From UHGV virus genome UHGV-0192366: DNA of 35,794 nucleotides, one strand, 5' to 3'. The translations under genes and the position numbers were made by a program. How positions within the stretch are numbered: position 1 is the stretch's first letter; each line of letters starts with the position of its first letter. Below are positions 1-35,794 of the stretch, piece by piece. The stretch comes from a virus. The notes below the pieces were generated by a model. It saw only the letters and a list, made by a program, of their open reading frames with translations, did not search any database and had not been told where the DNA came from.

Positions 1-20
1 TTGTCCTCCCTTCACAACAA

Positions 21-269
21 TTACAATATTAAGCCGCCAAGTCTCTGTTTCTCTTCTTCCGGGATTCTCAATGCCTTGCATATCAGCCTTAATTCCCGTA
101 AATTAAATTTATCCGGCTCACGTATTTTGGCGTACAGGGTGCTTTCTGGTATGCCTGTAAGAGCCGAAAGATCATCCATCCCTATATCCTTTAACCTTTT
201 CGCATTGTCAATACTGCCACGCAAAACCCGGTTTTTTATTTCGTTTTCTCCAACTGCTGTTCTTGGCAC
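21..269 (-). CDS. small HTH DNA-binding protein (possible excisionase/regulator)
   Basis: Track ORF starts with GTG at 269. An internal ATG (~179) with an AAAGGA RBS gives a 52-aa product, MDDLSALTGIPESTLYAKI..., which has an HTH-like segment. Confidence 0.4.
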   Translation of the reverse strand: MPRTAVGENEIKNRVLRGSIDNAKRLKDIGMDDLSALTGIPESTLYAKIREPDKFNLRELRLICKALRIPEEEKQRLGGLIL

Positions 270-433
270 GTTATCAATCCTCCATTCTTTTCCTCTACTG
301 CATCCATATCTGATCTCGCTTTCAGAATATCCATGCTATTCTTGGCAAGCATAAATCCCTGTGGGTCATTTTCTGCAAGATATTTCGCTTTTTTCACCAT
401 TTCTGCAATCTCTTTTCTGTCTTTTTCGCTCAT
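236..433 (-). CDS. hypothetical early protein (65 aa)
   Basis: ATG preceded by AGGAGGT. It sits in the early operon directly downstream of the antirepressor. Confidence 0.55.
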   Translation of the reverse strand: MSEKDRKEIAEMVKKAKYLAENDPQGFMLAKNSMDILKARSDMDAVEEKNGGLITCQEQQLEKTK

Positions 434-442
434 GCGTACCTC

Positions 443-1159
443 CTATGCTGCATTTAAAAACTTATTGATAAAATACTGCTGACCTTTACCGGTTACTTTT
501 GTGGTTTTGTTAATCCGAACGGAACCATCTGGATTCATAGCTGTTGTCTCTTTCACTTCAAACAGCCCTAAATTCATAGATTTCTGTGTGGGCGAGTTCC
601 ATTCCGTTCCTTTTCTCTTACTCAGATATCCATTTTCACGCAACCACTCAAATAAGCGCTTCTGCCCTGTTTCAACGCCGTTCTGTTTCAAAATCTTCGC
701 CAGATCGCCGATTAAGATGGATGTATGACTGGTAGCGACAGCATCCGCAAATATCGCTTTCGGCTTCATTTCCTCAATTTGCGCTGTCTGCTCTTCGATT
801 GTCTTCTGCGCTTCAAGTACTGCAAGCGCAAGAAGTTCTTTACCCTGTGGAACGTGTTCTTTGATGACGTTTTCCATCTGGTGAAATCGCTTGATGTATT
901 TTGCTGTGAACTCTGTTCCTTTGACTCCCGTGAGCTTGTGGGCGATAAATTCGCACCCCTCTTTTGTGATTAGGTAGCACGGATATTCTTTTCCTCTACC
1001 ATTTACATAAGTTGATTCTGCGAAAAAATCTGACTGGGGAATTTTCCCCAGTGAAAGTTGTTCGCAATATCTACGAATATCTTTCATCAAGTCATTGTGG
1101 GCTTTCCCAACCATCTCAGCCACTTCACGGCTGTCTAATTTCTGTTGCAATTCGTTCAA
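443..1159 (-). CDS. phage antirepressor (Rha N-terminal domain plus KilA-C/ORF6C C-terminal domain)
   Basis: N-terminus SREVAEMVGKAHNDLMKDIRRY...YPCYLITKEGCEFIAHKLTG is typical of Phage_pRha. C-terminus LFEWLRENGYL...GLFEVKETTAMNPDGSVRINKTTKVTGKGQQYF matches the KilA-C/ORF6C type. TTG start with an AGGAGGT RBS. Confidence 0.8.
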   Translation of the reverse strand: MNELQQKLDSREVAEMVGKAHNDLMKDIRRYCEQLSLGKIPQSDFFAESTYVNGRGKEYPCYLITKEGCEFIAHKLTGVKGTEFTAKYIKRFHQMENVIKEHVPQGKELLALAVLEAQKTIEEQTAQIEEMKPKAIFADAVATSHTSILIGDLAKILKQNGVETGQKRLFEWLRENGYLSKRKGTEWNSPTQKSMNLGLFEVKETTAMNPDGSVRINKTTKVTGKGQQYFINKFLNAA

Positions 1160-1207
1160 TACCTTTTACCTCCTATTTTTATTGCCGTCGTAACCTCCGT
1201 GGCGGGA

Positions 1208-1236
1208 TTGCTTTCTTTTTGTTTATCTCCTATACT
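1208..1236 (+). promoter_or_regulatory. sigma-70-like promoter (TTGCTT-17-TATACT) for the plus-strand moron operon
   Basis: Hexamers and 17-nt spacer read directly. About 45 nt upstream of the AAAGGAG RBS of the 1284 ORF. Confidence 0.4.
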
Positions 1237-1283
1237 GTAAATACAGGTGTTGCAGCACCGAGTATTATGAAAGGAGATTTATT

Positions 1284-1661
1284 ATGCTTGACACATTATC
1301 AATCATTGTCAACACTACTGTATCTGTTATTTCTGCAATTATAGACTTCGCAGCCGTCCCATTGTCAGCTGCATCCGTATTTATCTTGGTGGTCGATCGG
1401 CATGAGAAAAAGGAAAGCGAAAAAATGAAACTTATCGTTACTCCCAAAAGGAAATATGCGAATAAGCAAACCGGTATGCTTTACCTTTACCTCAGTTTTT
1501 CCAACGAATCATCACTTCCTATATCTGTATTGGATATGAGACTCATGGCGTGTGATGATTATTCGGATAATTTCACAAAGTATGATGTTGCACAAGGGAC
1601 TGTATCCGTTGAAAGCATGGAAATGATTCCAACCAACAGGAGGGGGGAAACCAATTCCTGA
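1284..1661 (+). CDS. hypothetical membrane protein (N-terminal hydrophobic segments), moron gene 1
   Basis: AAAGGAG RBS 7 nt upstream of ATG. Hydrophobic N-terminus IIVNTTVSVISAIIDFAAVPLSAASVFILVV. Oriented opposite to the early operon. Confidence 0.55.
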   Translation: MLDTLSIIVNTTVSVISAIIDFAAVPLSAASVFILVVDRHEKKESEKMKLIVTPKRKYANKQTGMLYLYLSFSNESSLPISVLDMRLMACDDYSDNFTKYDVAQGTVSVESMEMIPTNRRGETNS

Positions 1662-1668
1662 TACAAAT

Positions 1669-1938
1669 GTGAAAAAAACTTCTCCAATCCCAATTGTGAT
1701 ACCTCCATATGGCGCTTACGGCGGTTATTTCGGATTTTATTTTAATAAAGAGGATGCATTCATTCTTTGTCACAAGGACGTGAGGTTAGAAATCATAACT
1801 TCTCGCAAATCATATAAAATCGAAATGAACTTAAATGCCGCTAATTTTTATGAAACGTCTTATCGTGACGATGGACTGGTGTTTGGAAAAAGCGTTATAG
1901 GCACTCTTTACGTAGACACAACGATTAAAAGCTTATAA
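1669..1938 (+). CDS. hypothetical protein, moron gene 2
   Basis: ORF directly follows the 1284 ORF. GTG start with a distant G-rich RBS. Confidence 0.35.
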   Translation: MKKTSPIPIVIPPYGAYGGYFGFYFNKEDAFILCHKDVRLEIITSRKSYKIEMNLNAANFYETSYRDDGLVFGKSVIGTLYVDTTIKSL

Positions 1939-2292
1939 AATCGTGCATTTCATTCTCGTTCTACATATTGGACAATAAGTGCTTTCCGCTTCTTCTTTGC
2001 TGCATGTTTTCAAAATTGCTGTGCAACAATTCGGACAGGTAGTTACTACGTCAATTAGCCTGTCCGCTATTGTGGTTTTTATCAGAATAGAAATGGATAT
2101 CGCAATTAAGATCAACATGAACATAAAAAATATAAGCAAAAGCACTAAAACAATTATTGGGGCTCCTGGAACTAAACTCTTAAAACCACGCATCTTTCTC
2201 ACCTCGCTTTCTACTGCTCTGTCCTCTGCATCTTCCGGGCTTGGAACCGGCTTCGGCTGCATTACAGTGCCGGAACGTTCCGGCTTATTCAA
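1933..2292 (-). CDS. hypothetical membrane protein with C-terminal zinc-ribbon (CPNCC...CPIC)
   Basis: Central TM helix IIVLVLLLIFFMFMLILIAISISILI. C-terminal Cys4 motif. Second gene after the early promoter. Confidence 0.5.
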   Translation of the reverse strand: MNKPERSGTVMQPKPVPSPEDAEDRAVESEVRKMRGFKSLVPGAPIIVLVLLLIFFMFMLILIAISISILIKTTIADRLIDVVTTCPNCCTAILKTCSKEEAESTYCPICRTRMKCTIL

Positions 2293-2488
2293 TTACTTTA
2301 TATTCGCTTACTTCTCTTTCTACAAGGACAAGCTTTCCTTCATAATTGTTTGATTCCACTAAACCATCAAAACGATTTTTTGCTTTTTCGTAACTTGTGC
2401 TTGTAAATCTGCAGGGAATTCCTTGATAACTTAATGGGATAAAAAGTTTTCCGTTTTTCACCGTTCTGATTGAATATTCTTTCTTCAT
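2285..2488 (-). CDS. hypothetical first early gene (Cro-position, no recognisable HTH)
   Basis: GGGAGAAAGAAGGAAAG RBS. It lies directly downstream of a consensus minus-strand promoter and diverges from the CI-like gene. Confidence 0.5.
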   Translation of the reverse strand: MKKEYSIRTVKNGKLFIPLSYQGIPCRFTSTSYEKAKNRFDGLVESNNYEGKLVLVEREVSEYKVIE

Positions 2489-2573
2489 GTTCTTTCCTTC
2501 TTTCTCCCCGTCATGCCGATAGGACAGCGTTTTTAATTTTGGTTTGTTGTGTTGTTTTGTTGTCTATGGTTAC

Positions 2574-2602
2574 ATTATACTGACCTTTGGTAACTTTGTC
2601 AA
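2574..2602 (-). promoter_or_regulatory. early (lytic-direction) promoter TTGACA-17-TATAAT on the minus strand
   Basis: Plus-strand tgtcaa at ~2597-2602 and attata at ~2574-2579 with a 17-nt spacer. Perfect consensus. Confidence 0.6.
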
Positions 2603-2629
2603 CTCTTTTTTGTTGCCTTTGGTAACTTT
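2584..2629. repeat. two 14-bp direct repeats CCTTTGGTAACTTT (candidate operators) in the switch region
   Basis: Copies at ~2584-2597 and ~2616-2629. The first overlaps the minus promoter spacer and -35. The second abuts the -35 of the plus promoter. Confidence 0.55.
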
Positions 2630-2634
2630 TTTTC

Positions 2635-2663
2635 TTGACTTTGACTTTTTACTGATATATAAT
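2635..2663 (+). promoter_or_regulatory. promoter of the CI-like repressor gene TTGACT-17-TATAAT
   Basis: Hexamers and spacer read directly. GAAAGG RBS, ATG at 2687. Confidence 0.6.
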
Positions 2664-2686
2664 GTAATCAGAAAGGCGGTGAATAA

Positions 2687-3085
2687 ATGTCTTACGGGAA
2701 AAGAGTATTTGATCTGAGAAAGCAGTTAAATTTAACTCTCGAGAAATTCGGTGAACCACTAGGAGTGACTAAGACTGCGATCTCTAGAATAGAGAAAGAA
2801 GAACGTACAATAACAGATCAAATGGCTAAAGCCATATGTAGAGAATATGGAGTGAACGAAGAATGGCTATTATCTGGAACAGGCGAAATGTTCAAGCAAC
2901 CATCCGATGAAATTGGGTATTATGTAGAAGATTTACTGGAATATGACGGACATGGAAATCCTTTTTACGATATGATCATAGAAATGATGAAGAAATATCA
3001 AGAACTGGATGAAAAATCAAAAACTGTTATACGAGAGTACTTCAAAAGCGTAGGTTCTGGGTTAAGTGAAAAAAGGGAAGACTAA
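2687..3085 (+). CDS. XRE-family HTH repressor, CI-like (no peptidase S24 domain)
   Basis: HTH LTLEKFGEPLGVTKTAISRIEKEE followed by the NEEWLLSG motif common in Firmicutes phage repressors. Diverges from the early promoter. Confidence 0.75.
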   Translation: MSYGKRVFDLRKQLNLTLEKFGEPLGVTKTAISRIEKEERTITDQMAKAICREYGVNEEWLLSGTGEMFKQPSDEIGYYVEDLLEYDGHGNPFYDMIIEMMKKYQELDEKSKTVIREYFKSVGSGLSEKRED

Positions 3086-3192
3086 AGTCTCCCTCTTTTC
3101 TCCAGATACCTATGTAATATCGAAACAAGCTGCTTAATGATTCTGTAGTCGTTACCATTCAGCTTGGATAACAAGATATTTAATTCGTCCAT
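3082..3192 (-). CDS. 36-aa helical peptide ORF (MDELNILLSKLNGNDYRIIKQLVSILHRYLEKRGRL)
   Basis: GGAGGG RBS 8 nt upstream of ATG. Below the ORF-track cutoff. Its stop overlaps the stop of the CI-like gene convergently. Confidence 0.4.
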   Translation of the reverse strand: MDELNILLSKLNGNDYRIIKQLVSILHRYLEKRGRL

Positions 3193-3241
3193 CGTGAGTC
3201 CCTCCTAACTGCAAAAACACATGTTCGAAATTCCTGAATAT

Positions 3242-3270
3242 ATAATACTATTTCAGTGAATAAAAATCAA
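3242..3270 (-). promoter_or_regulatory. minus-strand promoter TTGATT-17-TATTAT, flanked by inverted repeat ATGTTCGAA / TTCGAACAT
   Basis: Hexamers read on the minus strand. IR arms at ~3221-3229 and ~3279-3287 bracket the promoter. Confidence 0.45.
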
Positions 3271-3388
3271 TATTTTGTTCGAACATTTGTTCTGTTATTT
3301 TATGGCAATATTTTGCCCTCTATTAAGTAAACAATTAAAATTCGGGAAACTTACGCAAAAATGGACAATCGTCCCAGATCTGGGACAC

Positions 3389-3586
3389 TTATTTGTATGG
3401 AGAGTCGATAAGGTCAGAAATTCGGACTTTTAAGCCCCTGGCAAGCAATTCCAATGTGTCGGCTGTCGGTGATATTTCACCATTTGCAATGCGGTTGATC
3501 GTTGATTTTGATATTCCGGTCGCAATGGATACTTGCCGAGTAGATAGGTTTTTATCGAGCATGATCTTATCGAGTAGTATTTTCAT
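3389..3586 (-). CDS. small XRE-family HTH protein (Cro/SinR-like, 65 aa)
   Basis: Classic HTH LSTRQVSIATGISKSTINRIANGE. Diverges from the lipoprotein gene. Direct repeats ATACTGGAAA x2 lie in the intergenic region 3609-3641. Confidence 0.7.
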   Translation of the reverse strand: MKILLDKIMLDKNLSTRQVSIATGISKSTINRIANGEISPTADTLELLARGLKVRISDLIDSPYK

Positions 3587-3711
3587 AATATTTTAATTGT
3601 AGTATATTCCGATACTGGAAACTACAGGGAAATACTGGAAATGATATAACCGCTTCGGCGTTTATATATAGAGTAAAGTGGTGTTAATGTACATAAGAAA
3701 GTGAGGAAGCT

Positions 3712-4242
3712 ATGAAAAAGAAAATTGTAGCAATGTTATTAGTAGGAGCTATGGCATTATCCATTACAGCATGTGGTGGGGATGCCGAACCATCCAAAGA
3801 CGCCGAGGCAAAGACAGAAGCAACAACAGAGCAGAAAGAAGGATCAAAAGAAGAAGCACAGCCAGTCGATGACGGAATCATAGATTTTACAGCAGAAAAA
3901 TTTAATGTAAAATATGTACGACATGAATTTGCGAATGATTATGAGGGAAATAAATGTCTGCTTTACTATTATACCTTTACAAATAATTCGGACAAAAACG
4001 CAACAGCTGGAATTGCTGCAAACGTACAGTGTTTTCAGGACGGTGGCGAGTGTGAAATAGGAATTATGGCAGAACAGAACGACTCTATGAACAATTACGC
4101 TATAAATGAAGTGCAGCCAGGTGGAACGGTTGAAGTATGCCAGGTATATAAATTGAAGAGTGATACTGAGCTCACAATCGAAGCATCCGATATGATATCG
4201 TTTGACAACAAGAAGGATACTCAGAAAATCGCCGTGCAATAA
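3712..4242 (+). CDS. secreted lipoprotein (lipobox LSITAC); candidate superinfection-exclusion/lysogenic-conversion protein
   Basis: Signal peptide MKKKIVAMLLVGAMALSITAC-GG. GAGGAAG RBS. Located between the immunity genes and int. Confidence 0.7.
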   Translation: MKKKIVAMLLVGAMALSITACGGDAEPSKDAEAKTEATTEQKEGSKEEAQPVDDGIIDFTAEKFNVKYVRHEFANDYEGNKCLLYYYTFTNNSDKNATAGIAANVQCFQDGGECEIGIMAEQNDSMNNYAINEVQPGGTVEVCQVYKLKSDTELTIEASDMISFDNKKDTQKIAVQ

Positions 4243-4280
4243 AATAAAAACCGCCCCAGTGCTACCAACACTGAGACGGT
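4241..4280 (-). terminator. rho-independent terminator on the minus strand (12-bp stem with 2 G.U pairs, then UUUUUAUUUU)
   Basis: Minus-strand RNA folds as accgucucagug-uugguag-cacuggggcggu followed by uuuuuauuuu. The plus-strand version is weaker and has no U-tract. Confidence 0.45.
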
Positions 4281-4408
4281 CTACATATCCGAAGATATGC
4301 GATTAAAATCCAAGAATATTGTATCATCTTCGGAGCAGTCATGCAAGTGGAACATCAGTTCGCACGTTGGCTGTTATTTTTATACTTAAATTTAAAGGAG
4401 ATGACGAA

Positions 4409-5515
4409 ATGGCAACAGCAAAGCAGCTGCCCTCCGGTACATGGAGGTGTCTTGTATATAGCCACAAAGAAAAGCTATATGACAGGGAAGGAAAACCAAT
4501 TATCGACGAGAAGACAGGGAAACAGAAGGAAAAGAGAATATACGAATCCTTTACAAGCTCCCTTCCGGGGCGAAAGGGAAAGCAGGATGCAGAAGCGCAG
4601 GCGGCTACATTTCTTGCAGAGCGAGAATTTAAACAGCGCCCGGAAAACCTAAGCATAAGAGAGGCCTTTAAACGGTACATAGCCGCGAAAGAAAATGTGC
4701 TGTCAGAAACCACATTGCGCGGGTATGAGACGATTATGAACAACCAGATTGCAGATATTGCAGAAATCAGTATACGCAAGATCACACCAGAGAATGTGCA
4801 GATGTGGATCAATAATCTATCCGCAAGACTATCGCCAAAAACCGTAAAGAACGCCTATGGACTTTTTATCCCGGTAATGTCTATGTATGCCCCAGATCGG
4901 ACATTTAAAACCACCCTCCCTCAGTCGGAAGAACTAGAGTATTATACTCCATCCGATCAAGATATAGTAAATCTAATAGAGTACATTAAGGGAACAGAAC
5001 TTGAAAAAGCTGTGCTTCTGGCTGCTTTTGGCAGCCTTAGACGCGGAGAAGTGTGCGGACTCGAAAAAGAGGATATAAACGGAAATTCGATTAGAGTCCG
5101 GATTACAAGAGTGCGCGGAAGAAAAGGGATGATCGAGAAGTCACCTAAGACGAAAAAGAGTTACCGATATATTATTTTTCCAGAATTTGTTATACGAAAA
5201 TTTGATGATGTAGAAGGAAAACTTGTTAAGATGCACCCGGAAGATATCTCTAAAAAGTTTGGGCGTATACTGCAAGCGGCAGGGATACCAAAGTTCCGAT
5301 TCCACGATCTCAGACATTATACCGCATCGATCATGCACGCTATCGGGATACCTGACCAGTATATAATGAAGCGTGGCGGTTGGAAATCTGATCGCGTGTT
5401 AAAAAAAGTCTATCGCAACACGATTGATGCAGAAGACAAGAAATTTATCGATAAAGTAAACTCACATTTCGAGAACATGCAACACGAAATGCAACACGTA
5501 GAAAAAGAAGCCTGA
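4409..5515 (+). CDS. int: tyrosine recombinase / phage integrase
   Basis: AAAGGAG RBS, ATG at 4409 (the track start at 4319 is TTG). C-terminal catalytic region HDLRHYTASIM...GGWKSDRVLKKVYRNT is typical of Y-recombinases. N-terminal arm-binding-like SGTWRC. Confidence 0.9.
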   Translation: MATAKQLPSGTWRCLVYSHKEKLYDREGKPIIDEKTGKQKEKRIYESFTSSLPGRKGKQDAEAQAATFLAEREFKQRPENLSIREAFKRYIAAKENVLSETTLRGYETIMNNQIADIAEISIRKITPENVQMWINNLSARLSPKTVKNAYGLFIPVMSMYAPDRTFKTTLPQSEELEYYTPSDQDIVNLIEYIKGTELEKAVLLAAFGSLRRGEVCGLEKEDINGNSIRVRITRVRGRKGMIEKSPKTKKSYRYIIFPEFVIRKFDDVEGKLVKMHPEDISKKFGRILQAAGIPKFRFHDLRHYTASIMHAIGIPDQYIMKRGGWKSDRVLKKVYRNTIDAEDKKFIDKVNSHFENMQHEMQHVEKEA

Positions 5516-5542
5516 ATTTACGCGCATTTTAAGCAAAAATGT

Positions 5543-5567
5543 GAGGGTTCGACTCCCGCCAGGTCCA
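5543..5567 (+). other. attP core candidate: tRNA/tmRNA 3'-end-like segment (T-arm GGTTCGACTCC plus acceptor 3' strand CAGGTCC plus A73)
   Basis: GAGGGTTCGACTCCCGCCAGGTCCA lies immediately 3' of int. No D or anticodon arms upstream, so it is a 3' fragment only. One mismatch in the T-stem. Confidence 0.5.
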
Positions 5568-5572
5568 TGATA

Positions 5573-5609
5573 AAGGGAATCGCGAGAAATCGTAGATTCC
5601 CTTTTTTAT
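5573..5609 (+). terminator. rho-independent terminator downstream of int
   Basis: AGGGAATC...GATTCCCTTTTTTATT: 8-9 bp stem followed by a T-tract. Confidence 0.6.
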
Positions 5610-5716
5610 TGGCTTTATCGGATATACTATTTTATAAAAAATATAATATTTTATAATTTGTGTTGCATTTTACACTGGTATGCAACACGATATGCAACAC
5701 GAAAATGATACAATAT

Positions 5717-5896
5717 TCAGGACGGCAACTCCATCCGCCCAACACTCATATACGCTGCACGTAAAAAGGTGTGCATCATTTCGGTTGTCAAGATCATCCC
5801 TCTTGGCAGCCGGAACTTGAATGTATTACCTGGTATCTCCAAAAACTCTTGGTAAAGCAAAAATGTATCGTAAGATTCGTAGATCTGGTATTCCAT
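5717..5896 (-). CDS. hypothetical 59-aa ORF in the attP P' arm region
   Basis: GAGGGGGAA RBS 5-6 nt upstream of ATG. Upstream TTCAAT-16-TATAAT. Below the track cutoff. Confidence 0.35.
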   Translation of the reverse strand: MEYQIYESYDTFLLYQEFLEIPGNTFKFRLPRGMILTTEMMHTFLRAAYMSVGRMELPS

Positions 5897-5995
5897 GATT
5901 GTTCCCCCTCTTGCATTGATTACATATTATTATAACACAGAGGGGCTTGAATTGAATTTATTAAAAAATACATTTCACTGACAAATAATATTATT

Positions 5996-6030
5996 CCCCT
6001 CAGAGAGCTGATCTCCGAGGGGATTTTATT
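5996..6030. terminator. bidirectional hairpin terminator downstream of the amidase gene
   Basis: CCCCTC-agagagctgatct-ccGAGGGG followed by ATTTTATT. A/T-rich on both sides. Confidence 0.45.
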
Positions 6031-6832
6031 AGATAGATGTAGATGGTTTTCTGTTCAGCACCGCAAGTAATCTTGCGTGCCACGGCGCTTTCTTTGTCCA
6101 ATGATAAGATGGCATATCTCTCCCATTGTTCGCTTTGTAAATATCCATCAGGATCTTCATCTCATCCGGATGTCCCAAAGCCGTAATCTTATCATCATGA
6201 TACCAATATACACATCCTTTTCCCTCTACTGTAAACATACACTGCATAGTCTCTTCTCCTTCCTGATCTTCTGTATTCTGTTTGTTTCCATGTCCACTTC
6301 CTGCGGATGCTTTGCTGTCGATTGCCTTTGCGATCAGCTCAGCAATCCCTCTCGCTCCTAAGCTCCGGTATCTGGCCACATCGTCTGTTCCGGTGCAAAA
6401 TAATGTCTCTACGATCATACCGGGCATATTGGATGCATTCAGATCATGATAGCCGGAACTATATTTAACACCGCGGTTAACAAATCCTTTTTCTTCAAAA
6501 TTCTTGCAGATATTACTTGCGATCGTATTCATGGTCTGGTTAGATGCATCGTATAACCACACCTCTGTACCGCCAGCTGACGCCGCTCCTGCCGCATTCA
6601 TGTGCAAGGTGACATAGATATCGCATCCCGCACTATTCGCCTTATTTGTGCCGTCTGCCAGCTCGCCAGACACATTGGATGCGTTGGAATTACAATCAAC
6701 CACAGTATGACCGACAGCCTCTAACATTGGTGCGAGCTCATTGTAGATCTTCCGCACTTCTTCCTGCTCATCGATCAGACCGATCGCGCCCTTGCAATTT
6801 GGAGAGTGCCCTCCCCTTAAACCGATTTTCAT
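6029..6832 (-). CDS. N-acetylmuramoyl-L-alanine amidase (Amidase_3 family endolysin) with unassigned C-terminal domain
   Basis: N-terminus MKIGLRGGHSPNCKGAIGLIDE...GCDIYVTLHMNAAG is typical of CwlA-type amidase_3. Confidence 0.8.
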   Translation of the reverse strand: MKIGLRGGHSPNCKGAIGLIDEQEEVRKIYNELAPMLEAVGHTVVDCNSNASNVSGELADGTNKANSAGCDIYVTLHMNAAGAASAGGTEVWLYDASNQTMNTIASNICKNFEEKGFVNRGVKYSSGYHDLNASNMPGMIVETLFCTGTDDVARYRSLGARGIAELIAKAIDSKASAGSGHGNKQNTEDQEGEETMQCMFTVEGKGCVYWYHDDKITALGHPDEMKILMDIYKANNGRDMPSYHWTKKAPWHARLLAVLNRKPSTSI

Positions 6833-6918
6833 TACTCCTGTTCCTCCTGCTCTTCTGTCTCAAACGCTTTTTCCAGTTCTTCTGCTGTTGTTCTTCCAAA
6901 TTCGTTCTGTTCGCTCAT
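6832..6918 (-). CDS. 28-aa highly acidic peptide ORF (MSEQNEFGRTTAEELEKAFETEEQEEQE), translationally coupled to the amidase
   Basis: AGGAGGTGAG RBS. Its stop overlaps the amidase ATG (TAATG). Confidence 0.35.
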   Translation of the reverse strand: MSEQNEFGRTTAEELEKAFETEEQEEQE

Positions 6919-6936
6919 GTTCTCACCTCCTTGCAT

Positions 6937-6965
6937 AATAAAAGAGAGCCTGTTTCCAAGCTCTC
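6937..6965 (-). terminator. intrinsic terminator between the holin and amidase genes
   Basis: Minus-strand GAGAGC-uuggaaacag-GCUCUC followed by UUUUAUUAU. Confidence 0.5.
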
Positions 6966-6971
6966 CTGAAT

Positions 6972-7220
6972 CTATTTATATGTAAGTGCCCTCTCCGAAT
7001 CTCCTGTTCCCGGTGTTGTTGGGTCTACCACTACACCGAGGATCGCCAGCACTGCAAAGAGCGCATTGATTACGGTTAATAGCTTATCCCCAAGGTCTCC
7101 AAGGTCGATGGTAAGACCAAACACTGCCGCGATAGCCTGTACCAACAGCAAGAGTGCCGGAATCAGTGCCACCCAGAATGCCTTGTTTTTAATTCTTACA
7201 ATCCAGTTAATCTTCTTCAT
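6972..7220 (-). CDS. holin (phi-LC3/LL-H family, Phage_holin_1)
   Basis: MKKINWIVRIKNKAFWVALIPALLLLVQ...two TM segments...VVDPTTPGTGDSERALTYK matches this holin family. Confidence 0.85.
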   Translation of the reverse strand: MKKINWIVRIKNKAFWVALIPALLLLVQAIAAVFGLTIDLGDLGDKLLTVINALFAVLAILGVVVDPTTPGTGDSERALTYK

Positions 7221-28806: not shown

Positions 28807-28821
28807 TAGTCATTCCTCCTA

Positions 28822-30183
28822 CTACGCAAACCTAATTTGCTGCTCATCCTCATATATTTCTATGTTCGGCACCCTATTCCCGATTTTTAAATACGGGCAG
28901 TTTGCTTCTACCAGTTTCTGTGCCATGATTGGCACTACACTGTTTCCGATTCTAGCTACTTGTTTTGCGATCGGATATCTCCTGTATTTGTAATCCCTGT
29001 CAATGATGTAGTCCTCCGGAAATCCTTGCATTAATTTAAGCTCTTCCGGTTTTAACATTCTTAGGAAAATATCCTTCAGGACATACTTTTCGCCTTCGAT
29101 ATCCAGAATCACATTTACTAATCCGAAACGATCTTTTGTAGTAATCGTTGCAAGCGGATTTGAAAGTTCTTGTCCTCCGCCAGTTCCGTAATACTTAATT
29201 AAAAACGCAGATATCAATCCAAAATGTCCAGGTGATGTTGTGATTGTGTGTAAAGGTTCGTTGCATCCCTGTCCGATTCCACTTTTATAAAATTTTGTAA
29301 CAAAAGCTGTCACCAGGCCATACCTGTTTGATGTGTCGATTGTTTTAATTGGTTCTGTCAGCAACTGTCCTCTTGATTCTCCAATTTTTGTTTCTCCGTG
29401 GTATTGAATCATAAATGCAACAGCATCTTTATTTCTCACGATATAGGGAGATGGATTGTCTATTACATATTTTCTGATTCCATTTGCAATCCTTTTCATC
29501 GTTGCATCTGCCAACGGTTTTGGTCTATCAAATATTGTTTTCCCTAAATCAGACCAATCGATATATGCCCCGCATTCCTGCCATTTCGGATCTCTGGATT
29601 TAAAATTCGTCTTTTCTGGCCACACGATGTCTTTTCCATCTCTCCTGAAAATTGCATACCAGCGCTTTCTTGTAGTTGGCGCGCCATAGTCTGCCGCAAT
29701 AAGCTCCCGGCAGTCGAATATATACCCGAGACTCTTCATTGCCGCAATGAACTTCTTATAATCTTCCCCACGCCGCTCCTTAATCGGATGCCCGTTTTCA
29801 TCCAAAGGCCCCCACTGTTGGATTTCTTCCACGTTTTCCATGATAATCACATCAGGAAGAATTGCTTTTGCGTGTTTGTATACCGCCCAAGGCAAAATCC
29901 GAAGTCCTTTTTCCCTCGGCTTCCCACCTTTTGCCTTACTGTGGCTGGTGCAATCAGGACTCGCCCACATTAAAGCAACTCGCTTTCCTTTCACATATTT
30001 CTTCAAATCTACCTTGAAGATATCTTCTGTGAGATGCAATGTTTTCGGATGGTTTGTCTTGTGCATCAAAATTGCATCCGGATCGTGATTGATTGCAATA
30101 TCTACTTGTCTTCCAAGTGCCATTTCTATTCCTACGCTCGCTCCACCTCCTCCGGCGAAGCAATCTATAATCAAATTTTCCAT
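28822..30183 (-). CDS. DNA (cytosine-5)-methyltransferase, orphan, with triplicated target-recognition-like repeats (multispecific phage type)
   Basis: Motif I DCFAGGGGAS, IV SPDC, VI IIMENVEE, VIII TRKRWYAIFRR, X GNSVVP. Variable region aa ~278-360 has three repeats P(I/L)xTIxT..(Y/F)GL(V/I)xAF..K(F/Y)Y. No cognate endonuclease gene nearby. Confidence 0.85.
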   Translation of the reverse strand: MENLIIDCFAGGGGASVGIEMALGRQVDIAINHDPDAILMHKTNHPKTLHLTEDIFKVDLKKYVKGKRVALMWASPDCTSHSKAKGGKPREKGLRILPWAVYKHAKAILPDVIIMENVEEIQQWGPLDENGHPIKERRGEDYKKFIAAMKSLGYIFDCRELIAADYGAPTTRKRWYAIFRRDGKDIVWPEKTNFKSRDPKWQECGAYIDWSDLGKTIFDRPKPLADATMKRIANGIRKYVIDNPSPYIVRNKDAVAFMIQYHGETKIGESRGQLLTEPIKTIDTSNRYGLVTAFVTKFYKSGIGQGCNEPLHTITTSPGHFGLISAFLIKYYGTGGGQELSNPLATITTKDRFGLVNVILDIEGEKYVLKDIFLRMLKPEELKLMQGFPEDYIIDRDYKYRRYPIAKQVARIGNSVVPIMAQKLVEANCPYLKIGNRVPNIEIYEDEQQIRFA

Positions 30184-30257
30184 TTTCTCAGAAGCCCGGT
30201 ATACCCTTGCCCCGGCCGGAGGCTGGCTCCTTTCTATTTTCGCTTATTTTTTATAAC

Positions 30258-30746
30258 CTACTGTAAATACCTCCGCATTAATATCCGGTTTGGATTCGAT
30301 ACCGCTCTGTTGAGCCGGCAACTAGTCCGCACCCAGCCCTCGTGAAACTCCATGTAATTTGCAATGTTGCCAAAGATATCCTTGACCGAAGCTTCCTGTT
30401 TCTTTGACTCAGGCATCATATCGTTATCCTTCAGGAAGTTTTTAAACGTTTCAATGCTCGCATCTATTCCGCTCTCTTCGCTTATTGCTGCATAGATGTT
30501 CTGGATCGTAAGTCCGTATTCGATCATGTACTTAATTTCTCCCTTGTACGGTTCGTATTGTTTTCTTTTATTTTCCATCTTTCTTAACCACATCCTCTTG
30601 TTTGCTATTACCCTCTTTTTCACTTCTTTTCCGGTAATATCCTCAAGCACTCTGCAGATATGCTCATCCGAGCATCCGAGTTTTACCATCTCTTCGATTT
30701 GGAACTGGTACGGATCCAGAAAGTGTGCTGGCCTACGCATTTTCAA
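30258..30746 (-). CDS. hypothetical protein (162 aa)
   Basis: Clean ORF upstream of the MTase. Confidence 0.45.
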   Translation of the reverse strand: MKMRRPAHFLDPYQFQIEEMVKLGCSDEHICRVLEDITGKEVKKRVIANKRMWLRKMENKRKQYEPYKGEIKYMIEYGLTIQNIYAAISEESGIDASIETFKNFLKDNDMMPESKKQEASVKDIFGNIANYMEFHEGWVRTSCRLNRAVSNPNRILMRRYLQ

Positions 30747-30924
30747 CCTCTCTTTCCAGCCACTCTTTTTGGCTCTTGTACAAATTCAGGTATTTATCAC
30801 GGTTTTCTTCGTACAGATCGTTTTCTAAATCCTCATCTATTCTTGTAAGTATCATCTTCACTGCGGAGATTTCTGGCGTATCCGTTTCTCCTGTTATGCT
30901 ATTTAACTTCTCATTATTTGTCAT
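30733..30924 (-). CDS. hypothetical protein (63 aa, acidic)
   Basis: ORF overlapping the next gene start by 14 nt. Confidence 0.35.
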   Translation of the reverse strand: MTNNEKLNSITGETDTPEISAVKMILTRIDEDLENDLYEENRDKYLNLYKSQKEWLEREVENA

Positions 30925-31051
30925 TTTCCTCTCACCCTTTTCTTCCTCTTCCGCTTTGTACTGCCGTACATAAACGCTGCCATATTGCCCGGTTTGAATC
31001 CTGCAGACTGTTTTCTATGGCTGCTAAAGCTGTATTTTCCTCTGTCCATGC

Positions 31052-31630
31052 TTACTCCCTTTCTAAACTCCACCATGCTTTCACGTTCTTTCCATATCCG
31101 GTTGTCTGTATCTTTATTTTTAATTCGTTTCTTGCTTTCATAACATCTGACCGTTTGATTCCCGCTGCATCTGACTCCATGAGCAGTTTCGCTCCGTCAT
31201 ATCGTCCGCCTGCCATTTTATCTTTTAACCATTCCACCGCCTTGTCATAATCGGTCTTAGATACCTCGTTGACCTTGTCCTTAATCTTTTCCAGCTGGAT
31301 GGTGTTGGTGTTCATCTTGTTCCAGATCTTTTCAAAATTCTCCTGCATGATTCTGCGGTTCTCTAAAATCTCATCCCGGATGACTGTAAGTGCCTGTGCT
31401 GCGGTCATGCCTTTCTTTTCCGGCTCTTTTACCAGACTTCCCGGTTCAAGTCCGAGAAGTAAACACATGGTTCTTTCAAAATCTTCTGTCTGTTCCGGGT
31501 TCTTTGCCATACTGCAGACAAAAGACTTGCTTCTCCCGAGTTCCGCCGAGAATTTCTCTTTCGTCTTGCCCTGCTTTTCTAGTTCCTTGCAGAGCAAAGC
31601 GTAATTTATCGTTACTTTCTTCGGTTCCAT
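31052..31630 (-). CDS. hypothetical HTH-containing protein (192 aa)
   Basis: N-terminus INYALLCKELEKQGKTKEKFSAELGRSKSFVCSM is HTH-like. Follows the replisome organizer. Confidence 0.45.
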   Translation of the reverse strand: MEPKKVTINYALLCKELEKQGKTKEKFSAELGRSKSFVCSMAKNPEQTEDFERTMCLLLGLEPGSLVKEPEKKGMTAAQALTVIRDEILENRRIMQENFEKIWNKMNTNTIQLEKIKDKVNEVSKTDYDKAVEWLKDKMAGGRYDGAKLLMESDAAGIKRSDVMKARNELKIKIQTTGYGKNVKAWWSLERE

Positions 31631-31639
31631 AATTCCTCC

Positions 31640-32512
31640 TTAATTTGACTTCAACAACTGCTCTTCCAGAGAGTCCATGTCGTATCCTCTGCGCTCAAAG
31701 TTGTTTAGGTTTCTGCTTACTGGCGGTTTTGATTGCTTTGCATCTTTGTTTTTATAATTCCCATCCAGAATCTTTGCCATATTTGCATCATTCATCATCC
31801 AATCAAAGGTTGCCGACCAATTCCGGTTATTTTCCCCTTTCAGAAAATCACTTTCCTCTGCAAGCTCAAATCCCCTCTTAATGTCATCAATGGAATATTT
31901 TCTTAATCTTGCTTTAATTGCTCGTTTTCTTTTTTCAGATAATCGTGTTAAGCGAGGGAATGACACGCAAGTGGCATTATACATATCAGCTATTTGCTGA
32001 TAATCTACTCTATTACCTCTTATATCTCTTTCTTTATCTTTATCTTCTTCTTTATCTATATCTGTAGCGTGACTTCCCAAATTTGTCACACTTACGTCAC
32101 GTGACATTTCTGTGACACACTCAATTTTCTGTTTTTCCCTCTGTTTTTGCTTCCTAATCCGGTTCTGCTCCCTGATTTTCTCGAGGGCTTCCGCGTTCTG
32201 GTGCTCTTCCCAACCCGGAATAGTAAAAAATCCATTGTCCGTCACGATCATTTCAAGCTGCTCCAGTGATTGTAAGGCTAATTTCACGGTATTTTCCTCA
32301 AAATCAAGTTCATCAGCCAACATTTTAGGCGTGTATGGGATGTTCTGTGTCAAAAACACCATCCCGTTACTATTGCACCGCCCAGCCATGGTAAGCAGCA
32401 TTACCCAGATTAAGACAATATTGTTCCCGTCCGGTAATTTCCGCAGATGCTTGATTTTGCGATTATCAAACATGTCTGTTGTAATCTTGATCCACTTTAC
32501 CTCTGCCATCAC
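31640..32512 (-). CDS. phage replisome organizer (N-terminal phage_rep_org_N domain, DnaD-like)
   Basis: MMAEVKWIKITTDMFDNRKIKHLRKLPDGNNIVLIWVMLLTMAGRCN matches the conserved replisome-organizer N-terminus. Confidence 0.8.
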   Translation of the reverse strand: MMAEVKWIKITTDMFDNRKIKHLRKLPDGNNIVLIWVMLLTMAGRCNSNGMVFLTQNIPYTPKMLADELDFEENTVKLALQSLEQLEMIVTDNGFFTIPGWEEHQNAEALEKIREQNRIRKQKQREKQKIECVTEMSRDVSVTNLGSHATDIDKEEDKDKERDIRGNRVDYQQIADMYNATCVSFPRLTRLSEKRKRAIKARLRKYSIDDIKRGFELAEESDFLKGENNRNWSATFDWMMNDANMAKILDGNYKNKDAKQSKPPVSRNLNNFERRGYDMDSLEEQLLKSN

Positions 32513-32919
32513 TCATCCTCCGCAATATAGACCACCACGCAAGGCGTGTCCGAATATACCTTTTCAATTTCCAAACTGGTCACCTGCTTATCATCGGTGT
32601 ATGCGACTCCGTTCAGTCCATCCAGAATGATTTTTGCGATATTATCCAAGTCCGGCTTTTTATTCGGCTTTATTTCGCCTTTTAATGCTTTCTCCTTATT
32701 CTTCTTAGACCAGCTCTCTGAAATCGGAAATTTCGCTAAAATACGAACTCTCAGAGGCATCTCTGTATAAAGAACGCCTGCGCTTTGTTTATAAATCCTC
32801 GCAACTTCCTTTTCATACTTCTTGGTTTCTGGTGGCGTGTATGTAATGACCTTAAATCCAGCTCTGCGGAATTTTGGTCTTGCTTTTCCAACGGGTTTTC
32901 CCGGAATTGTAATTATCAT
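32509..32919 (-). CDS. rusA: RusA-family Holliday-junction resolvase
   Basis: GKPVGKARPKF...DLDNIAKIILDGLNGVAYTDDKQV is a canonical RusA motif. Confidence 0.85.
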   Translation of the reverse strand: MIITIPGKPVGKARPKFRRAGFKVITYTPPETKKYEKEVARIYKQSAGVLYTEMPLRVRILAKFPISESWSKKNKEKALKGEIKPNKKPDLDNIAKIILDGLNGVAYTDDKQVTSLEIEKVYSDTPCVVVYIAEDE

Positions 32920-33032
32920 TCGTTCTCCTTTCTGCTCCCGGAGTTACCGGGAGACAATGAATCTGGCTTACTTAAGGTATTTGTGACGTACTACACAGCA
33001 GCCATGAACGGGTTACAATTTATAGCAAAGGT

Positions 33033-33428
33033 TTAACCCTTACTAACATAGTGAAATTCTTGCCGGAACTGTTCTTCTGTTCCGTAGTGCTGCAAATAAT
33101 ACTCTTTGCAGCGTTTTCTTAAGTATCGGTCAACTTTCGATGCATTCTCCCCTGCCCTTGTTCCGTTTGGATGCAGATCCGGTCTCAGTGGAGCTATGAA
33201 TCCGTAATATTCCGAAAGTTCAATTTCTCTCGATGTGTGGCTAAAAATATGATGACGCTCCACTCCGTAAACTCCGGTGTACATGCAGTGATCCATGTCC
33301 TCTGTAAATATGCTCCACAGCTTCTTTGACCTGCCGGATGCTCTTTGATGACCTTTTTTCTTTTTCTTTCGCTTCGGCTTTGGGAATGCCATGTCACTGT
33401 AATCAATACTCACAGTTCGATCCCCCAT
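33033..33428 (-). CDS. hypothetical basic protein with HNH-like ERHHI motif (possible nuclease)
   Basis: KPKRKKKKKGHQRASG basic N-terminus. The VERHHIF...HPNG motif gives only weak support for a nuclease. Confidence 0.3.
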   Translation of the reverse strand: MGDRTVSIDYSDMAFPKPKRKKKKKGHQRASGRSKKLWSIFTEDMDHCMYTGVYGVERHHIFSHTSREIELSEYYGFIAPLRPDLHPNGTRAGENASKVDRYLRKRCKEYYLQHYGTEEQFRQEFHYVSKG

Positions 33429-33949
33429 TTTTGTCTAAGCTCTTCTTTTTCATCTGGGGTCAAAAGGTCTGCATCTGGTATTCCAACCTCTCTGCAATCT
33501 TCCAACACGCCTTTGATGAGTCTGCTCATTTCCTTGGTGTTATACTTGCTTGACCCTTTGTAGCATTGCAGAGTGTGTAATGTTTCAACTCTCCCTTTTA
33601 GGTCTTTTACTTCCTGTGCTCCGCGATCTATCACAATTCGGAACACTGACTGTGCCAGATAGATATCTTTTTCCCTGAGCGGTATGTACTCAAAAGCACC
33701 GTGGGATTTTAATTCATTTAGGTACGCTTGCCACCTGGTGATGTCCAACTTTTCCGCTAATTTATCGAGTAACACCCACAAATAAGAGTTCGCGTCAAGG
33801 CTTCTCTTTGCTCTGTACGGCTTTATTTCAAGCGTTAATTTCTCATAATCTTTCAGTTCATCGTAGGCTTGTCGGAAGTCCTCTACGGATTCGAATAGGA
33901 TGGTGTGGCAATCTATCAAACGACCTTTTAATCTTCCTGTAAACCTCAT
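33410..33949 (-). CDS. ninB: NinB/Orf-family recombination mediator (putative)
   Basis: YRAKRSLDANSYLWVLLDKLA resembles lambda Orf ERNRSLDQNRKLWACLGDVS. Location is downstream of the SSAP. Confidence 0.45.
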   Translation of the reverse strand: MRFTGRLKGRLIDCHTILFESVEDFRQAYDELKDYEKLTLEIKPYRAKRSLDANSYLWVLLDKLAEKLDITRWQAYLNELKSHGAFEYIPLREKDIYLAQSVFRIVIDRGAQEVKDLKGRVETLHTLQCYKGSSKYNTKEMSRLIKGVLEDCREVGIPDADLLTPDEKEELRQKWGIEL

Positions 33950-34665
33950 TATTCTTCTCCCATATTTCTCATAAGCTTTTTAAATTGCTCCACTGTCAGT
34001 TCTCGCAAACCCGACACCTTATAATGCCGACACACATTCGCTATTGTCTGCTTATGCTTCGGAATGCAAATTTCCAGTGTTTTTACCTGTGATTCGGTCA
34101 CATAGTTTTCGAGAGGTTCTTCTTGATTGGCAGGATTATAATTTCCGACATTTCTACCAAGCGAAAATACTACTTTTCCGGTTTTCTCATTTTCGATTTT
34201 CAGTGCATCTATGTTTCTTTCTTTGTCATAACCAACATAACTTACTCGGAAACGATCATAACAAGTGCTTCCATTACCATTCTGTTTCGCGGAAATTTCG
34301 CATTTATCGGATGGGATCCAAATAAACGGAGCGGTATATAACTCTCTTCCGATTCCCCAATTAAAGCAAGCTCTCTTAAAGCTGTCGGATGCAAGGCCTT
34401 TCTGTTTTTCAGTAAAGCTTTCCGTTCCTGTATCTTCTTTGGAAACCCAGATACCTTTATCATCATCCCATATACTCACGGTGCAGTTTGCGTTGTCTCT
34501 GCTATGTTCTCTTTTCCAATTTAACTTTCCAACAGTTTCATCCAAGATATTCATATCGCACCTTGCATCTTTGTATAGTAATAGTGATATCCCATTACTC
34601 TTCACCGTTGCGATACGACATTCAATCTCGTTCGCTTTTAATGTTCTGAACTCCATATTTCTCAC
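33949..34665 (-). CDS. single-strand annealing protein, Rad52/Sak-like (putative)
   Basis: Position between Gp157 and NinB as in Sfi21-like recombination modules. The N-terminal beta-rich region is compatible with the Rad52 fold. Family assignment unverified. Confidence 0.4.
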   Translation of the reverse strand: MRNMEFRTLKANEIECRIATVKSNGISLLLYKDARCDMNILDETVGKLNWKREHSRDNANCTVSIWDDDKGIWVSKEDTGTESFTEKQKGLASDSFKRACFNWGIGRELYTAPFIWIPSDKCEISAKQNGNGSTCYDRFRVSYVGYDKERNIDALKIENEKTGKVVFSLGRNVGNYNPANQEEPLENYVTESQVKTLEICIPKHKQTIANVCRHYKVSGLRELTVEQFKKLMRNMGEE

Positions 34666-35130
34666 CTACCGAATCTGAATATTATTGTTCTGTACCAATA
34701 CAACTCCAGATAACTCAACACCATCTTTCAGTGCCTTTTTCACCTTTGTTTTATCAACCTCAGGATCAGCAAATTTCAAGTATTCCTTGTCCAGTTTTGA
34801 AACATCTTGCACCTCTACACTCTCTGATTTTCGATAAGAGATGCTGACTCTTGCTGTTTTGAATTTCTCGCCACACAGGTAGCCAGACAGGTATTCTTTT
34901 AGATTTCTTGCCTTGTTTTCACATGATTTCTGGCGGTCAGCCAGTTTATTTTTCTCTGCCTTGATTGCTTCTGCATCAGATAAGAGGTTTTTGATCCAGA
35001 GAGCAATTCCCTCTACCTTTTTGTCAAAATCCATCTGCAACTGTGCCAGCTTTTCCGGGTCGATAATCTCGCCTGTTTCCTGATCTACACAATCTAAAAT
35101 CTCTTCGTCAATCTCGTATAATGTTGCCAT
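34666..35130 (-). CDS. Siphovirus Gp157-family protein
   Basis: MATLYEIDEEI...AEAIKAEKNKLADRQKSCENKARNLKEYL closely follows the Sipho_Gp157 consensus. GGAGG RBS. Confidence 0.75.
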   Translation of the reverse strand: MATLYEIDEEILDCVDQETGEIIDPEKLAQLQMDFDKKVEGIALWIKNLLSDAEAIKAEKNKLADRQKSCENKARNLKEYLSGYLCGEKFKTARVSISYRKSESVEVQDVSKLDKEYLKFADPEVDKTKVKKALKDGVELSGVVLVQNNNIQIR

Positions 35131-35255
35131 TTGTTATTTCCTCCATAAAATTGCAATAATTCTGATAGTGCCTTTTGCGCACCCTAAAATATCTGTCTTT
35201 TTCAGCCGCTTCTTGATCTGTTATTTCTTCCAGTTCTTCTGTATATCCGTACATA

Positions 35256-35519
35256 TTATTTGCCCACCATATCTACTGCTTTTTCCAGTAATACTTTTGC
35301 CAAAACGATTGCATCATCTAGTTGCTTATCTGTTTCAATACCGTCAAACAAATCGTAATCTCTATCAGCAACAAATCCGTTTTCTTGTGCGCTTAAAAAT
35401 ATTCTGTTACCGTAGTTCGAAAATTCAATGTTTACGTACGGATACCCATCCTTACCTTTTCCGCGCTCTTGAATCTCAAGAATTAAGTCTAAAAGTTCAT
35501 GTATTTTCTTTCTGTCCAT
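35256..35519 (-). CDS. hypothetical protein (87 aa)
   Basis: Clean ORF. TAATATG junction with a possible 49-aa downstream ORF. Confidence 0.45.
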   Translation of the reverse strand: MDRKKIHELLDLILEIQERGKGKDGYPYVNIEFSNYGNRIFLSAQENGFVADRDYDLFDGIETDKQLDDAIVLAKVLLEKAVDMVGK

Positions 35520-35606
35520 TGCTTATCCTCCTAAAATCTGTTAATATAGAATCGTATTTTTTCCTGAGTACCTACGGCTCCCCAGCCTTTTTGTAGGTGC
35601 TCATTT

Positions 35607-35792
35607 TTAATACCCAAATATCAACCACCATCCGATCAACGCCAGTACAAACCCGATCACAGATGCTGCAACCTTATGCCAGTAAGGCTTGTCCTGCTCC
35701 GGTAACTCAACAGATACGGAGCGGATATCCCAACCGTTTAATGCGTTCTGCTGCTGGGTTGTCTGGCAATGGTAAGTTCCTTTAATCTCCAT
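35607..35792 (-). CDS. small membrane protein (61 aa); RBS supplied by the window start if the molecule is circular
   Basis: C-terminal TM helix VAASVIGFVLALIGWWLIFGY. ATG at 35792. The reverse complement of window positions 1-20 gives GGGAGG 6 nt upstream across the junction. Confidence 0.5.
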   Translation of the reverse strand: MEIKGTYHCQTTQQQNALNGWDIRSVSVELPEQDKPYWHKVAASVIGFVLALIGWWLIFGY

Positions 35793-35794
35793 GC

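Follow-up and report, generated by a model that had tools for sequence, protein, structure and literature searches.

Genome of a temperate Mediterraneibacter gnavus siphovirus with an attachment site at the 3′ end of ssrA

The gut species Mediterraneibacter (Ruminococcus) gnavus has been linked to inflammatory bowel disease, and only a small number of phages are described for it. For prophages and islands, the 3′ end of the transfer-messenger RNA (tmRNA) gene, ssrA, is a long-known class of integration site. The described phages closest to the genome considered here are RG-TP1 (PQ571303), which was induced from M. gnavus DB_YZ_1, and the phiRg group, i.e., phiRg519T2, phiRM10, phiRgPS_6 and their relatives (MT980836-41). 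The attB sites reported for the latter group are either a 21-bp intergenic site or tRNA-Lys (Buttimer et al., 2023; PMC10072058), and the study of 29 M. gnavus phages in PMC13435783 did not establish where these integrate. The present analysis deals with UHGV virus genome UHGV-0192366, a stretch of 35,794 nucleotides that was analysed over its full length and is referred to below as the window. Its best nucleotide matches are all M. gnavus phages, with blocks of 86-94% identity to RG-TP1, phiRg519T2, phiRM10, and phiRgPS_6. The window is almost certainly the whole genome, 35,794 bp in length, of a temperate M. gnavus siphovirus in its excised form, an ordinary phage with a circular map that integrates at the 3′ end of the host ssrA gene.

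Closure of the circle and its opening point

The initial annotation took the window for an entire temperate phage genome in the attP form with an apparently circular map. This reading is now borne out: attP, attB, attL, and attR were all recovered, and independent contigs close the circle. The 35,794-bp circle is covered in full, at 99.9-100% identity, by three scaffolds assembled from different samples. One of them (L009; ENA ERZ28650032 scaffold_160) carries positions 30203..35794 followed by 1..6071, that is, 11,663 nt at 100% identity with no mismatch at the junction. Another scaffold, represented by contigs L013 and L070, matches 5560..32520 at 99.9%, and the last one (L071) matches 19312..34776 at 100%. 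Because these independent scaffolds tile the circle and one of them crosses the junction, the map is circular with nothing missing. Four integrated prophages with host flank (L011, L004, L006, and L003) also cross the junction uninterrupted, at 85-94% identity. A 34-mer spanning the junction had no match in IMG/VR, and the junction was confirmed instead from ENA/Logan contigs.

Joining the end of the window (...CTCCATGC) to its beginning (TTGTCCTCCC...) gives, on the minus strand, GGGAGGacaagcATG upstream of a 61-aa open reading frame (ORF; 35607..35792, minus strand). As had been noticed from the sequence, this join rebuilds a translation-initiation region, GGGAGG-6 nt-ATG. The ribosome-binding site GGGAGG (bases 5..10 of the segment 1..10, minus strand) is contiguous with the ORF in L009 at 100% identity, and the start of the ORF lies 2 nt from the window end. 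The circle therefore appears to have been cut arbitrarily between the ribosome-binding site and the ATG of this ORF, a place in the translation-initiation region, 2 nt upstream of a start codon, that is implausible as a physical DNA end. The proposal that the early operon continues over the junction likewise stood. On the minus strand, genes for an anti-repressor (pRha and ANT domains; 443..1159), a 65-aa ORF (236..433), and an HTH_26 protein (21..269) are followed by the 61-aa ORF, a small early 87-aa ORF (35256..35519), and a Gam-like gene (34666..35130), and the 22-nt spacer in this run over the junction is identical in the window and in L009 and L011.

The absence of host genes and the gene order int(+)-attP-lysis(-), both pointed out initially, were found as described. 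Each ORF with a family match belongs to a phage-type family, phage sequence flanks the att core on both sides, and host sequence is attached to no part of the window. The integrase gene (4409..5515, plus strand) is followed by the core (5545..5568), then by a 59-aa ORF and the endolysin and holin genes. The exact integrase and 59-aa proteins have in addition been deposited as “MAG TPA ... [Caudoviricetes sp.]” (DAJ10855.1 and DAJ10892.1, respectively), so that the same or a near-identical genome has probably been entered in GenBank before, as an uncultivated phage of the gut.

Attachment sites at the 3′ end of the tmRNA gene

The att core is a 24-bp segment (GGGTTCGACTCCCGCCAGGTCCAT; 5545..5568, plus strand) corresponding to the 3′ half of the T arm of tmRNA, the 3′ strand of its acceptor, and one following base. 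Contigs carrying the integrase gene fall into two arrangements around it. In attP-type contigs (L005, L009, and L015), int precedes the 59-aa ORF and the lysis genes just as it does in the window, and in six attR-type contigs (L003, L004, L006, L007, L011, and L012) it is followed by the core and then by bacterial genes; bacterial genes follow int in L008 and L010 too. The attL form was obtained from a scan of IMG/VR with a pattern combining the core and the P′ arm, which returned a contig (L031) with a complete tmRNA gene, the core, and the lysis-side arm of the phage. ARAGORN predicts the tag peptide ADENYALAA for this tmRNA, and the Rfam model RF00023 matches it at 139.9 bits over positions 1-374 of 374. 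Finally, a genome scan with a host-side 30-mer gave 34 Lachnospiraceae loci, one of which (L032) has an intact attB. This site is unoccupied: the tmRNA 3′ end and the core are followed by the same host terminator and genes as past the attR of L003 (98.8% identity). At all 24 positions, the core agrees with the tmRNA 3′ end of both L031 and L032. All four att forms are thus documented, attL and attR never occurring together on one contig.

The left boundary of the core was set by the attL of L031 and the attB of L032, and the right boundary by alignment of attP and attR forms. On the left, the host reads ...GGACGC|GGGTTCG... and the phage ...AATGTGA|GGGTTCG...; on the right, 11 aligned contigs are identical through ...CCAGGTCCAT (...GGTCCAT) and diverge immediately afterwards, which places the edge at 5568. 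The identity block is hence 24 nt long and ends in T. The initial annotation had proposed a 25-nt core at the 3′ end of a tRNA or tmRNA gene. The tmRNA 3′ end is indeed the target, but the 25-mer itself (GAGGGTTCGACTCCCGCCAGGTCCA) does not correspond to the core: it had no match in 185,579 genomes (one genome per species), the reason being that its second base (A) belongs to the phage arm. A tRNA-Ala target was also considered, since G3:U70 and A73 are common to both RNAs, and was rejected, as both ARAGORN and Rfam recognise a complete tmRNA gene at attL. In the att region of the window, Rfam matched the tmRNA model only in part and without significance (7.1 bits), which is to be expected of a 24-nt fragment. 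Several contigs break within the core (L013 at 5560, L017 at 5554, and L018 at 5557), which is expected where integrated and excised forms coexist in an assembly.

The integrase is a 368-aa protein of the tyrosine recombinase family with PF14659 and PF00589 domains. Its translation contains LRRGE, HDLRH, GGW, and KVY motifs, so that the catalytic-domain match is accompanied by the R..HxxR..W..Y residues and recombinase activity is predicted. The initial annotation started the gene at TTG 4319; the resulting 398-aa form is not on record, and the correct start is ATG 4409, preceded by an AAAGGAG ribosome-binding site. The exact 368-aa product is on record in 46 blocks of contigs with the same two Pfam domains, and as DAJ10855.1, “Integrase [Caudoviricetes sp.]”; its 90% cluster includes WP_268806428.1 from M. 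gnavus. Among the phage records searched, isolated M. gnavus phages included, this integrase was absent, and no record of the collection is more than 41% identical to it (≤41%).

Short repeats surround the core. Two tandem copies of ATGCAACACG in a 12-nt register overlap the 3′ end of int (5477..5498, plus strand) and would be arm-type integrase sites of the P arm, while ATGCAACAC(G), present as an inverted copy (5660..5668, a 9-mer) and two direct copies (5680..5701), would provide those of the P′ arm. All four exact copies of the decamer ATGCAACACG in the window lie beside the core, where chance would give 0.07 copies in the window, and conservation of the arm repeats extends to L005, L009, and L031, the contig with attL. 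An analogous layout with another repeat is seen in phiRg519T2, whose integrase is unrelated. The repeats are therefore read as putative arm-type binding sites of the integrase. Directly after the core, a hairpin followed by a T-run (5571..5610, plus strand; -28.9 kcal/mol, z = -3.5) occupies the position that the host ssrA hairpin and T-run hold after attB in L032, and could terminate the rebuilt tmRNA gene after integration.

In the proposed mechanism, the tyrosine integrase would recombine attP with the 3′ end of ssrA while bound to the ATGCAACACG arm repeats that flank the core on either side. The tmRNA 3′ end would then be restored by the core that the phage brings, and the hairpin at 5571..5610 would replace the host terminator. 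Because the core supplies the 3′ half of the T arm and the acceptor strand unchanged, ssrA should be kept intact in the lysogen. Known ssrA-targeting elements are alike in having a tyrosine integrase beside attP, a core that equals the tmRNA 3′ end, a rebuilt gene, and a replacement terminator.

The host is identified as M. gnavus by the genes that flank the integrated forms. An SmpB gene 9 kb past the attR of L003 encodes WP_347105628.1, “SmpB [Mediterraneibacter gnavus]”, residue for residue, in L031 the gene product to the left of ssrA shares a cluster with phospholipase C family proteins of M. gnavus, and an ATP-binding cassette (ABC) protein beside attR in an alternative context (L008 and L010) is named M. 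gnavus. All of this points to the human gut bacterium M. gnavus as the host.

That alternative context constitutes a second M. gnavus setting, in which attR (L008 3883..3930, and L010, compared with L005 10075..10120) is followed by an ABC/OpuAC transporter operon. The host hairpin after the core in these two contigs closely resembles the P′-arm hairpin of L005 and the window. This suggests that the phage arm may originally have been copied from a host ssrA terminator, and that attP-attB homology would extend well past 24 bp in strains of the L008/L010 type. In L003 (11108..20743), about 9 kb separate ssrA from smpB/rnr, with ASCH, holin-like, AzlCD, and fucose-utilisation genes inside, and other M. 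gnavus contigs have a different block after ssrA; the ssrA 3′ flank seems to be a variable, island-prone region in M. gnavus.

At the lysis-side end of the phage, the 59-aa ORF (5717..5896, minus strand) is recorded as hypothetical in M. gnavus and in Caudoviricetes sp. An identical product occurs in 462 blocks of contigs, always as the last prophage gene, by host DNA or an integrase. A search for attL through this ORF returned only prophages with other integrases or sites. The ORF is outermost even in M. gnavus prophages that have serine recombinases and other sites (L021-L030), one such site being inside or beside a Mn-catalase gene. On a 290-kb M. gnavus scaffold (ERZ28604754 scaffold_5; L025 and L026), two related prophages about 40 kb apart have identical 59-aa end genes, one of them adjoining a serine recombinase and the other the Mn-catalase site.

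Packaging and alternative readings

The packaging mode bears on how a circular map should be understood. The large terminase (TerL; 442 aa; 23448..24776, minus strand) passes the Pfam threshold for Terminase_6N (7e-12; 45.9 vs 22 bits) and is 94.8% identical to that of RG-TP1; a 444-aa form starting from the first ATG was discarded, the 442-aa form being the one on record. The initial annotation had assigned it to the PBSX family, and had proposed a P27 small terminase. The resemblance to PBSX holds, with TIGR01547 matching end to end (E = 3e-26), but membership does not, the score of 92.7 bits being below the NCBIfam cut-off of 105.05. For the small terminase (TerS; 24751..25218, minus strand), TIGR01558/Terminase_4 had no match in Pfam or NCBIfam at E ≤ 0.01, which removes the P27 assignment; the gene instead matches phrog_309 (5.7e-70) and, weakly, HTH_23 and GP3_package. 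From this family resemblance, headful packaging with circular permutation is probable: a Terminase_6N/PBSX-like TerL would package from concatemers and so produce circularly permuted virion DNA.

The alternative is a fixed cos site with unique genome ends, the circular map then representing the intracellular circle or a concatemer only. The packaging type is deduced here from genes, TerL is sub-threshold for the PBSX model, the TerS family is uninformative, and the M. gnavus phage papers searched give no packaging or termini data, all of which leave room for cos packaging. It is nonetheless unlikely. No HNH endonuclease ORF was seen beside the terminase genes, and the ends of the window, inside a translation-initiation region, do not look like physical termini. 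An A118-type portal, an SPP1 gp7-like minor capsid protein 2, and Terminase_6N together form the usual set of pac-type Firmicutes siphoviruses, a set that the portal (whose A118-type match is weak), the minor capsid protein 2, and TerL of this phage fit. Another possibility is that an integrated prophage was falsely closed by the assembler through the 24-bp attL/attR repeat, or that tandem prophage copies were present. The core is a direct repeat in lysogens, many contigs break in it, integrated copies of close relatives are common, and tandem integration would also give an int-core-lysis junction. However, the k-mers usual in final assembly steps exceed a 24-bp repeat, the int-attP-lysis junction recurs in L005 (at a coverage of about 503x, according to the contig name), L009, and L015, which come from different samples and assemblers, and no part of the window is joined to host sequence, making this explanation extremely improbable. 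Nearly as improbable is a defective prophage remnant or satellite in place of a viable phage. The lack of an identifiable excisionase and the several ORFs of no known family would fit such an element, but every module is complete and intact, the sequence recurs at 99.9-100% in samples of several individuals and in excised form, and close relatives form plaques (PMC10072058). A phage-plasmid was also considered and rejected, partition and plasmid replication genes being absent.

Several observations nevertheless weigh against a complete, excised, ssrA-integrating phage, and should be set beside the evidence above. Self-comparison of the window ends, which the initial annotation had suggested as a check, found neither a terminal direct nor a terminal inverted repeat, so that the window has no terminal overlap and offers no internal evidence of circularity. 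The excised molecule is deduced from assemblies and not from reads, an excisionase was not identified in the window, and the arm-site and terminator roles are putative. Headful packaging is argued from family resemblance, with TerL below the PBSX cut-off and a weakly matching TerS. Finally, the M. gnavus species-representative genome is not among the 34 loci with the 30-nt attB-side pattern; its ssrA 3′ flank may differ or be occupied.

Gene content and relationship to described phages

The complete temperate phage thus favoured has about 60 ORFs, nearly all on the minus strand, with a repressor-lipoprotein-integrase block and a small cassette (1284..2353) as plus-strand exceptions. Its GC content is 36-47% and its GC skew is negative throughout except at 2,000-6,000, which matches one long leftward transcription unit and a rightward lysogeny block. 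Family searches, together with precomputed Pfam assignments on identical genes in public contigs, revealed a full temperate siphovirus inventory. Its lysogeny module consists of the integrase, a CI-type helix-turn-helix (HTH) repressor, divergent consensus promoters, and the anti-repressor. In the lysis-lysogeny switch (2285..3085), a 67-aa ORF in the Cro position (2285..2488, minus strand) and the repressor gene (2687..3085, plus strand) are separated by a perfect leftward promoter (TTGACA-17-TATAAT; 2574..2602, minus strand) and a rightward one (TTGACT-17-TATAAT; 2635..2663, plus strand). The lysis-lysogeny decision would be set by the repressor and the leftward early operon from these divergent promoters (2574..2663), with the anti-repressor downstream. 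Between repressor and integrase lies a DUF5067 lipoprotein gene (3712..4242, plus strand), likely expressed from the prophage, as its position indicates.

The plus-strand cassette at 1284..2353 encodes unannotated ORFs of 125, 89, and 124 aa that run opposite to the early operon and are flanked by the Cro-position and anti-repressor genes, and none of them has a family in Pfam, PHROGs, or PADLOC. In relatives, the same slot holds 85- and 118-aa ORFs (L004 and L011) or DUF2513 (L006), and it looks like a swappable accessory slot expressed from the prophage. A more speculative and rather doubtful proposal is that the int/attP module (4409..5701) represents an uncharacterised lineage of ssrA-specific integrases, moving as a cassette between M. 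gnavus phage backbones that are otherwise unrelated, and that 1284..2353 is a prophage-expressed defence or exclusion locus of a new kind.

After induction, excision would be followed by replication through a DnaD-like replisome organiser and a Gam/Erf-like/NinB/RusA recombination set. This module (31640..35130, minus strand) comprises the replisome organiser (31640..32509), RusA (32509..32919), a NinB-like protein (33410..33949), an Erf-like annealing protein (33949..34656), and the Gam-like protein mentioned above. It is followed on the same strand by late or delayed-early genes, unknowns included (25868..31630), among which family searches recognised a C5 cytosine DNA methyltransferase (28822..30123), a Lar-like (28122..28301) and a YopX-like gene (27483..27959), and a putative late transcription regulator (phrog_36; 25868..26275). 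The other unknown ORFs of the window had no families by PADLOC, Pfam, or PHROGs. Two tRNA genes were called by ARAGORN upstream of the terminase genes, also on the minus strand: tRNA-Asn(GTT) (25381..25455; Rfam tRNA 75 bits) and a weaker tRNA-like call, Ala-CGC (25648..25720), which is below the gathering score of the Rfam tRNA model and has tRNA-Sec as its best match in the Rfam clan (24.8 bits vs 47). The latter may be an aberrant or decayed tRNA; the pair is annotated likewise in phiRg519T2.

The virion, packaging, and lysis genes form a complete set, all on the minus strand. Beyond the terminases, the head module includes the portal (phrog_533; 22103..23455), the SPP1-gp7-type minor capsid protein 2 (PF06152; 20921..22093), three genes of 96, 393, and 93 aa with no family match (19167..20906), the scaffold (PF06810; 18374..18922), and the major head protein (phrog_422; 17489..18346). 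The latter belongs to a run (14271..18346) that also contains connector, tail tube, and tail chaperone genes (Phage_Gp15, DUF6673, and DUF6751). The tape measure (11889..14219), Dit/Sipho_tail (10429..11892), and tail fibre/Prophage_tail (7586..10438) genes complete the tail. The lysis cassette (6029..7514) encodes a 93-aa protein (7233..7514), a Phage_holin_1 holin (6972..7220), and an Amidase_3 endolysin (6029..6832), the last two being identified from precomputed Pfam matches on identical genes in L013 and from the annotation of RG-TP1 and phiRg519T2.

Some features of the head module deserve mention in their own right. A GP20-b RNA motif (RF03003; 18944..19008, minus strand; 48.6 bits vs a gathering score of 36.2) lies in the untranslated gap directly upstream of the scaffold gene, the called start of which in identical contigs is 18922 and not 19018; GP20-b is a cis-regulatory motif of phage scaffold (GP20) genes. 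The 393-aa ORF (19459..20640, minus strand) has no family in Pfam, PHROGs, or PADLOC, and its counterparts among phages with an identical terminase are 379-529 aa long. Relatives with an identical TerL also carry, between the small head-module genes and the scaffold gene, a Tad2-like gene of the anti-Thoeris family (PF11195; L067 16208..16720, L068 16126..16638, L069 15331..15843, and L072 9574..10086), and the corresponding position of the window (19019..19166) has no gene. In one of these relatives, a Logan contig (L069 1..8000), the terminase/head module adjoins Tn916-Xis, MobA/MobL relaxase, Toprim/DnaB-like, and aminoglycoside-resistance-type genes, an arrangement that reflects either insertion of a phage next to a mobilisable element or chimerism of the assembly.

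Compared with described phages, the genome is a mosaic that combines a head and packaging module of the RG-TP1 type with a replication module, tRNA region, tail tip, and lysis cassette of the phiRg type. Relatedness was judged by whole-genome nucleotide criteria of 95% for the same species and 70% for the same genus, in a collection without the 29 RgGU phages of 2026. The best intergenomic similarity, to RG-TP1, is roughly 40% by a megablast estimate (not VIRIDIC), well short of 70%. RG-TP1 shares gene order with the window, and its structural/packaging module and parts of its early region are 80-90% identical at the nucleotide level: it covers 57% of positions 1..25000 at 86% identity and 25% of the remainder at 89%. 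Only about 47% of the window aligns with it overall, however, at about 86% identity, and RG-TP1 differs by its own integration module (with an annotated phrog_95 integrase), by primase/helicase and Sak4 replication genes, and by an annotation without tRNA genes. Conversely, the replication/recombination, tail fibre, and lysis genes and the tRNA pair are 84-97% identical in the phiRg group; phiRM10, phiRgPS_6, and phiRg519T2 cover 52-57% of positions 25001..35794 at 89-94%, in addition to the tail fibre and lysis genes. The phiRg phages resemble this phage in host species, temperate siphovirus lifestyle, and genome size (36-38 kb), but have a head/packaging module with a bIL285-type terminase, and the tyrosine integrase of phiRg519T2 is only about 20% identical to that of the window. 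The integrase is found in neither RG-TP1 nor the phiRg group, and its distance from the phage records searched also sets it apart from known ssrA-targeting elements.

An ssrA site is not among the attB sites given for M. gnavus phages in PMC10072058, in the supplement of which tmRNA, ssrA, and the core sequence each have no occurrence. Integration at ssrA is hence a new datum for M. gnavus, not a new mechanism. In other respects this is a textbook temperate siphovirus, the value of which lies in a clean annotation. What the genome contributes is a well-bounded temperate phage whose integration site, the 24-bp ssrA core, is defined and whose four att forms are documented from public data; this att set might serve as a tool for site-specific integration and help to delimit prophages in M. 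gnavus genomes.

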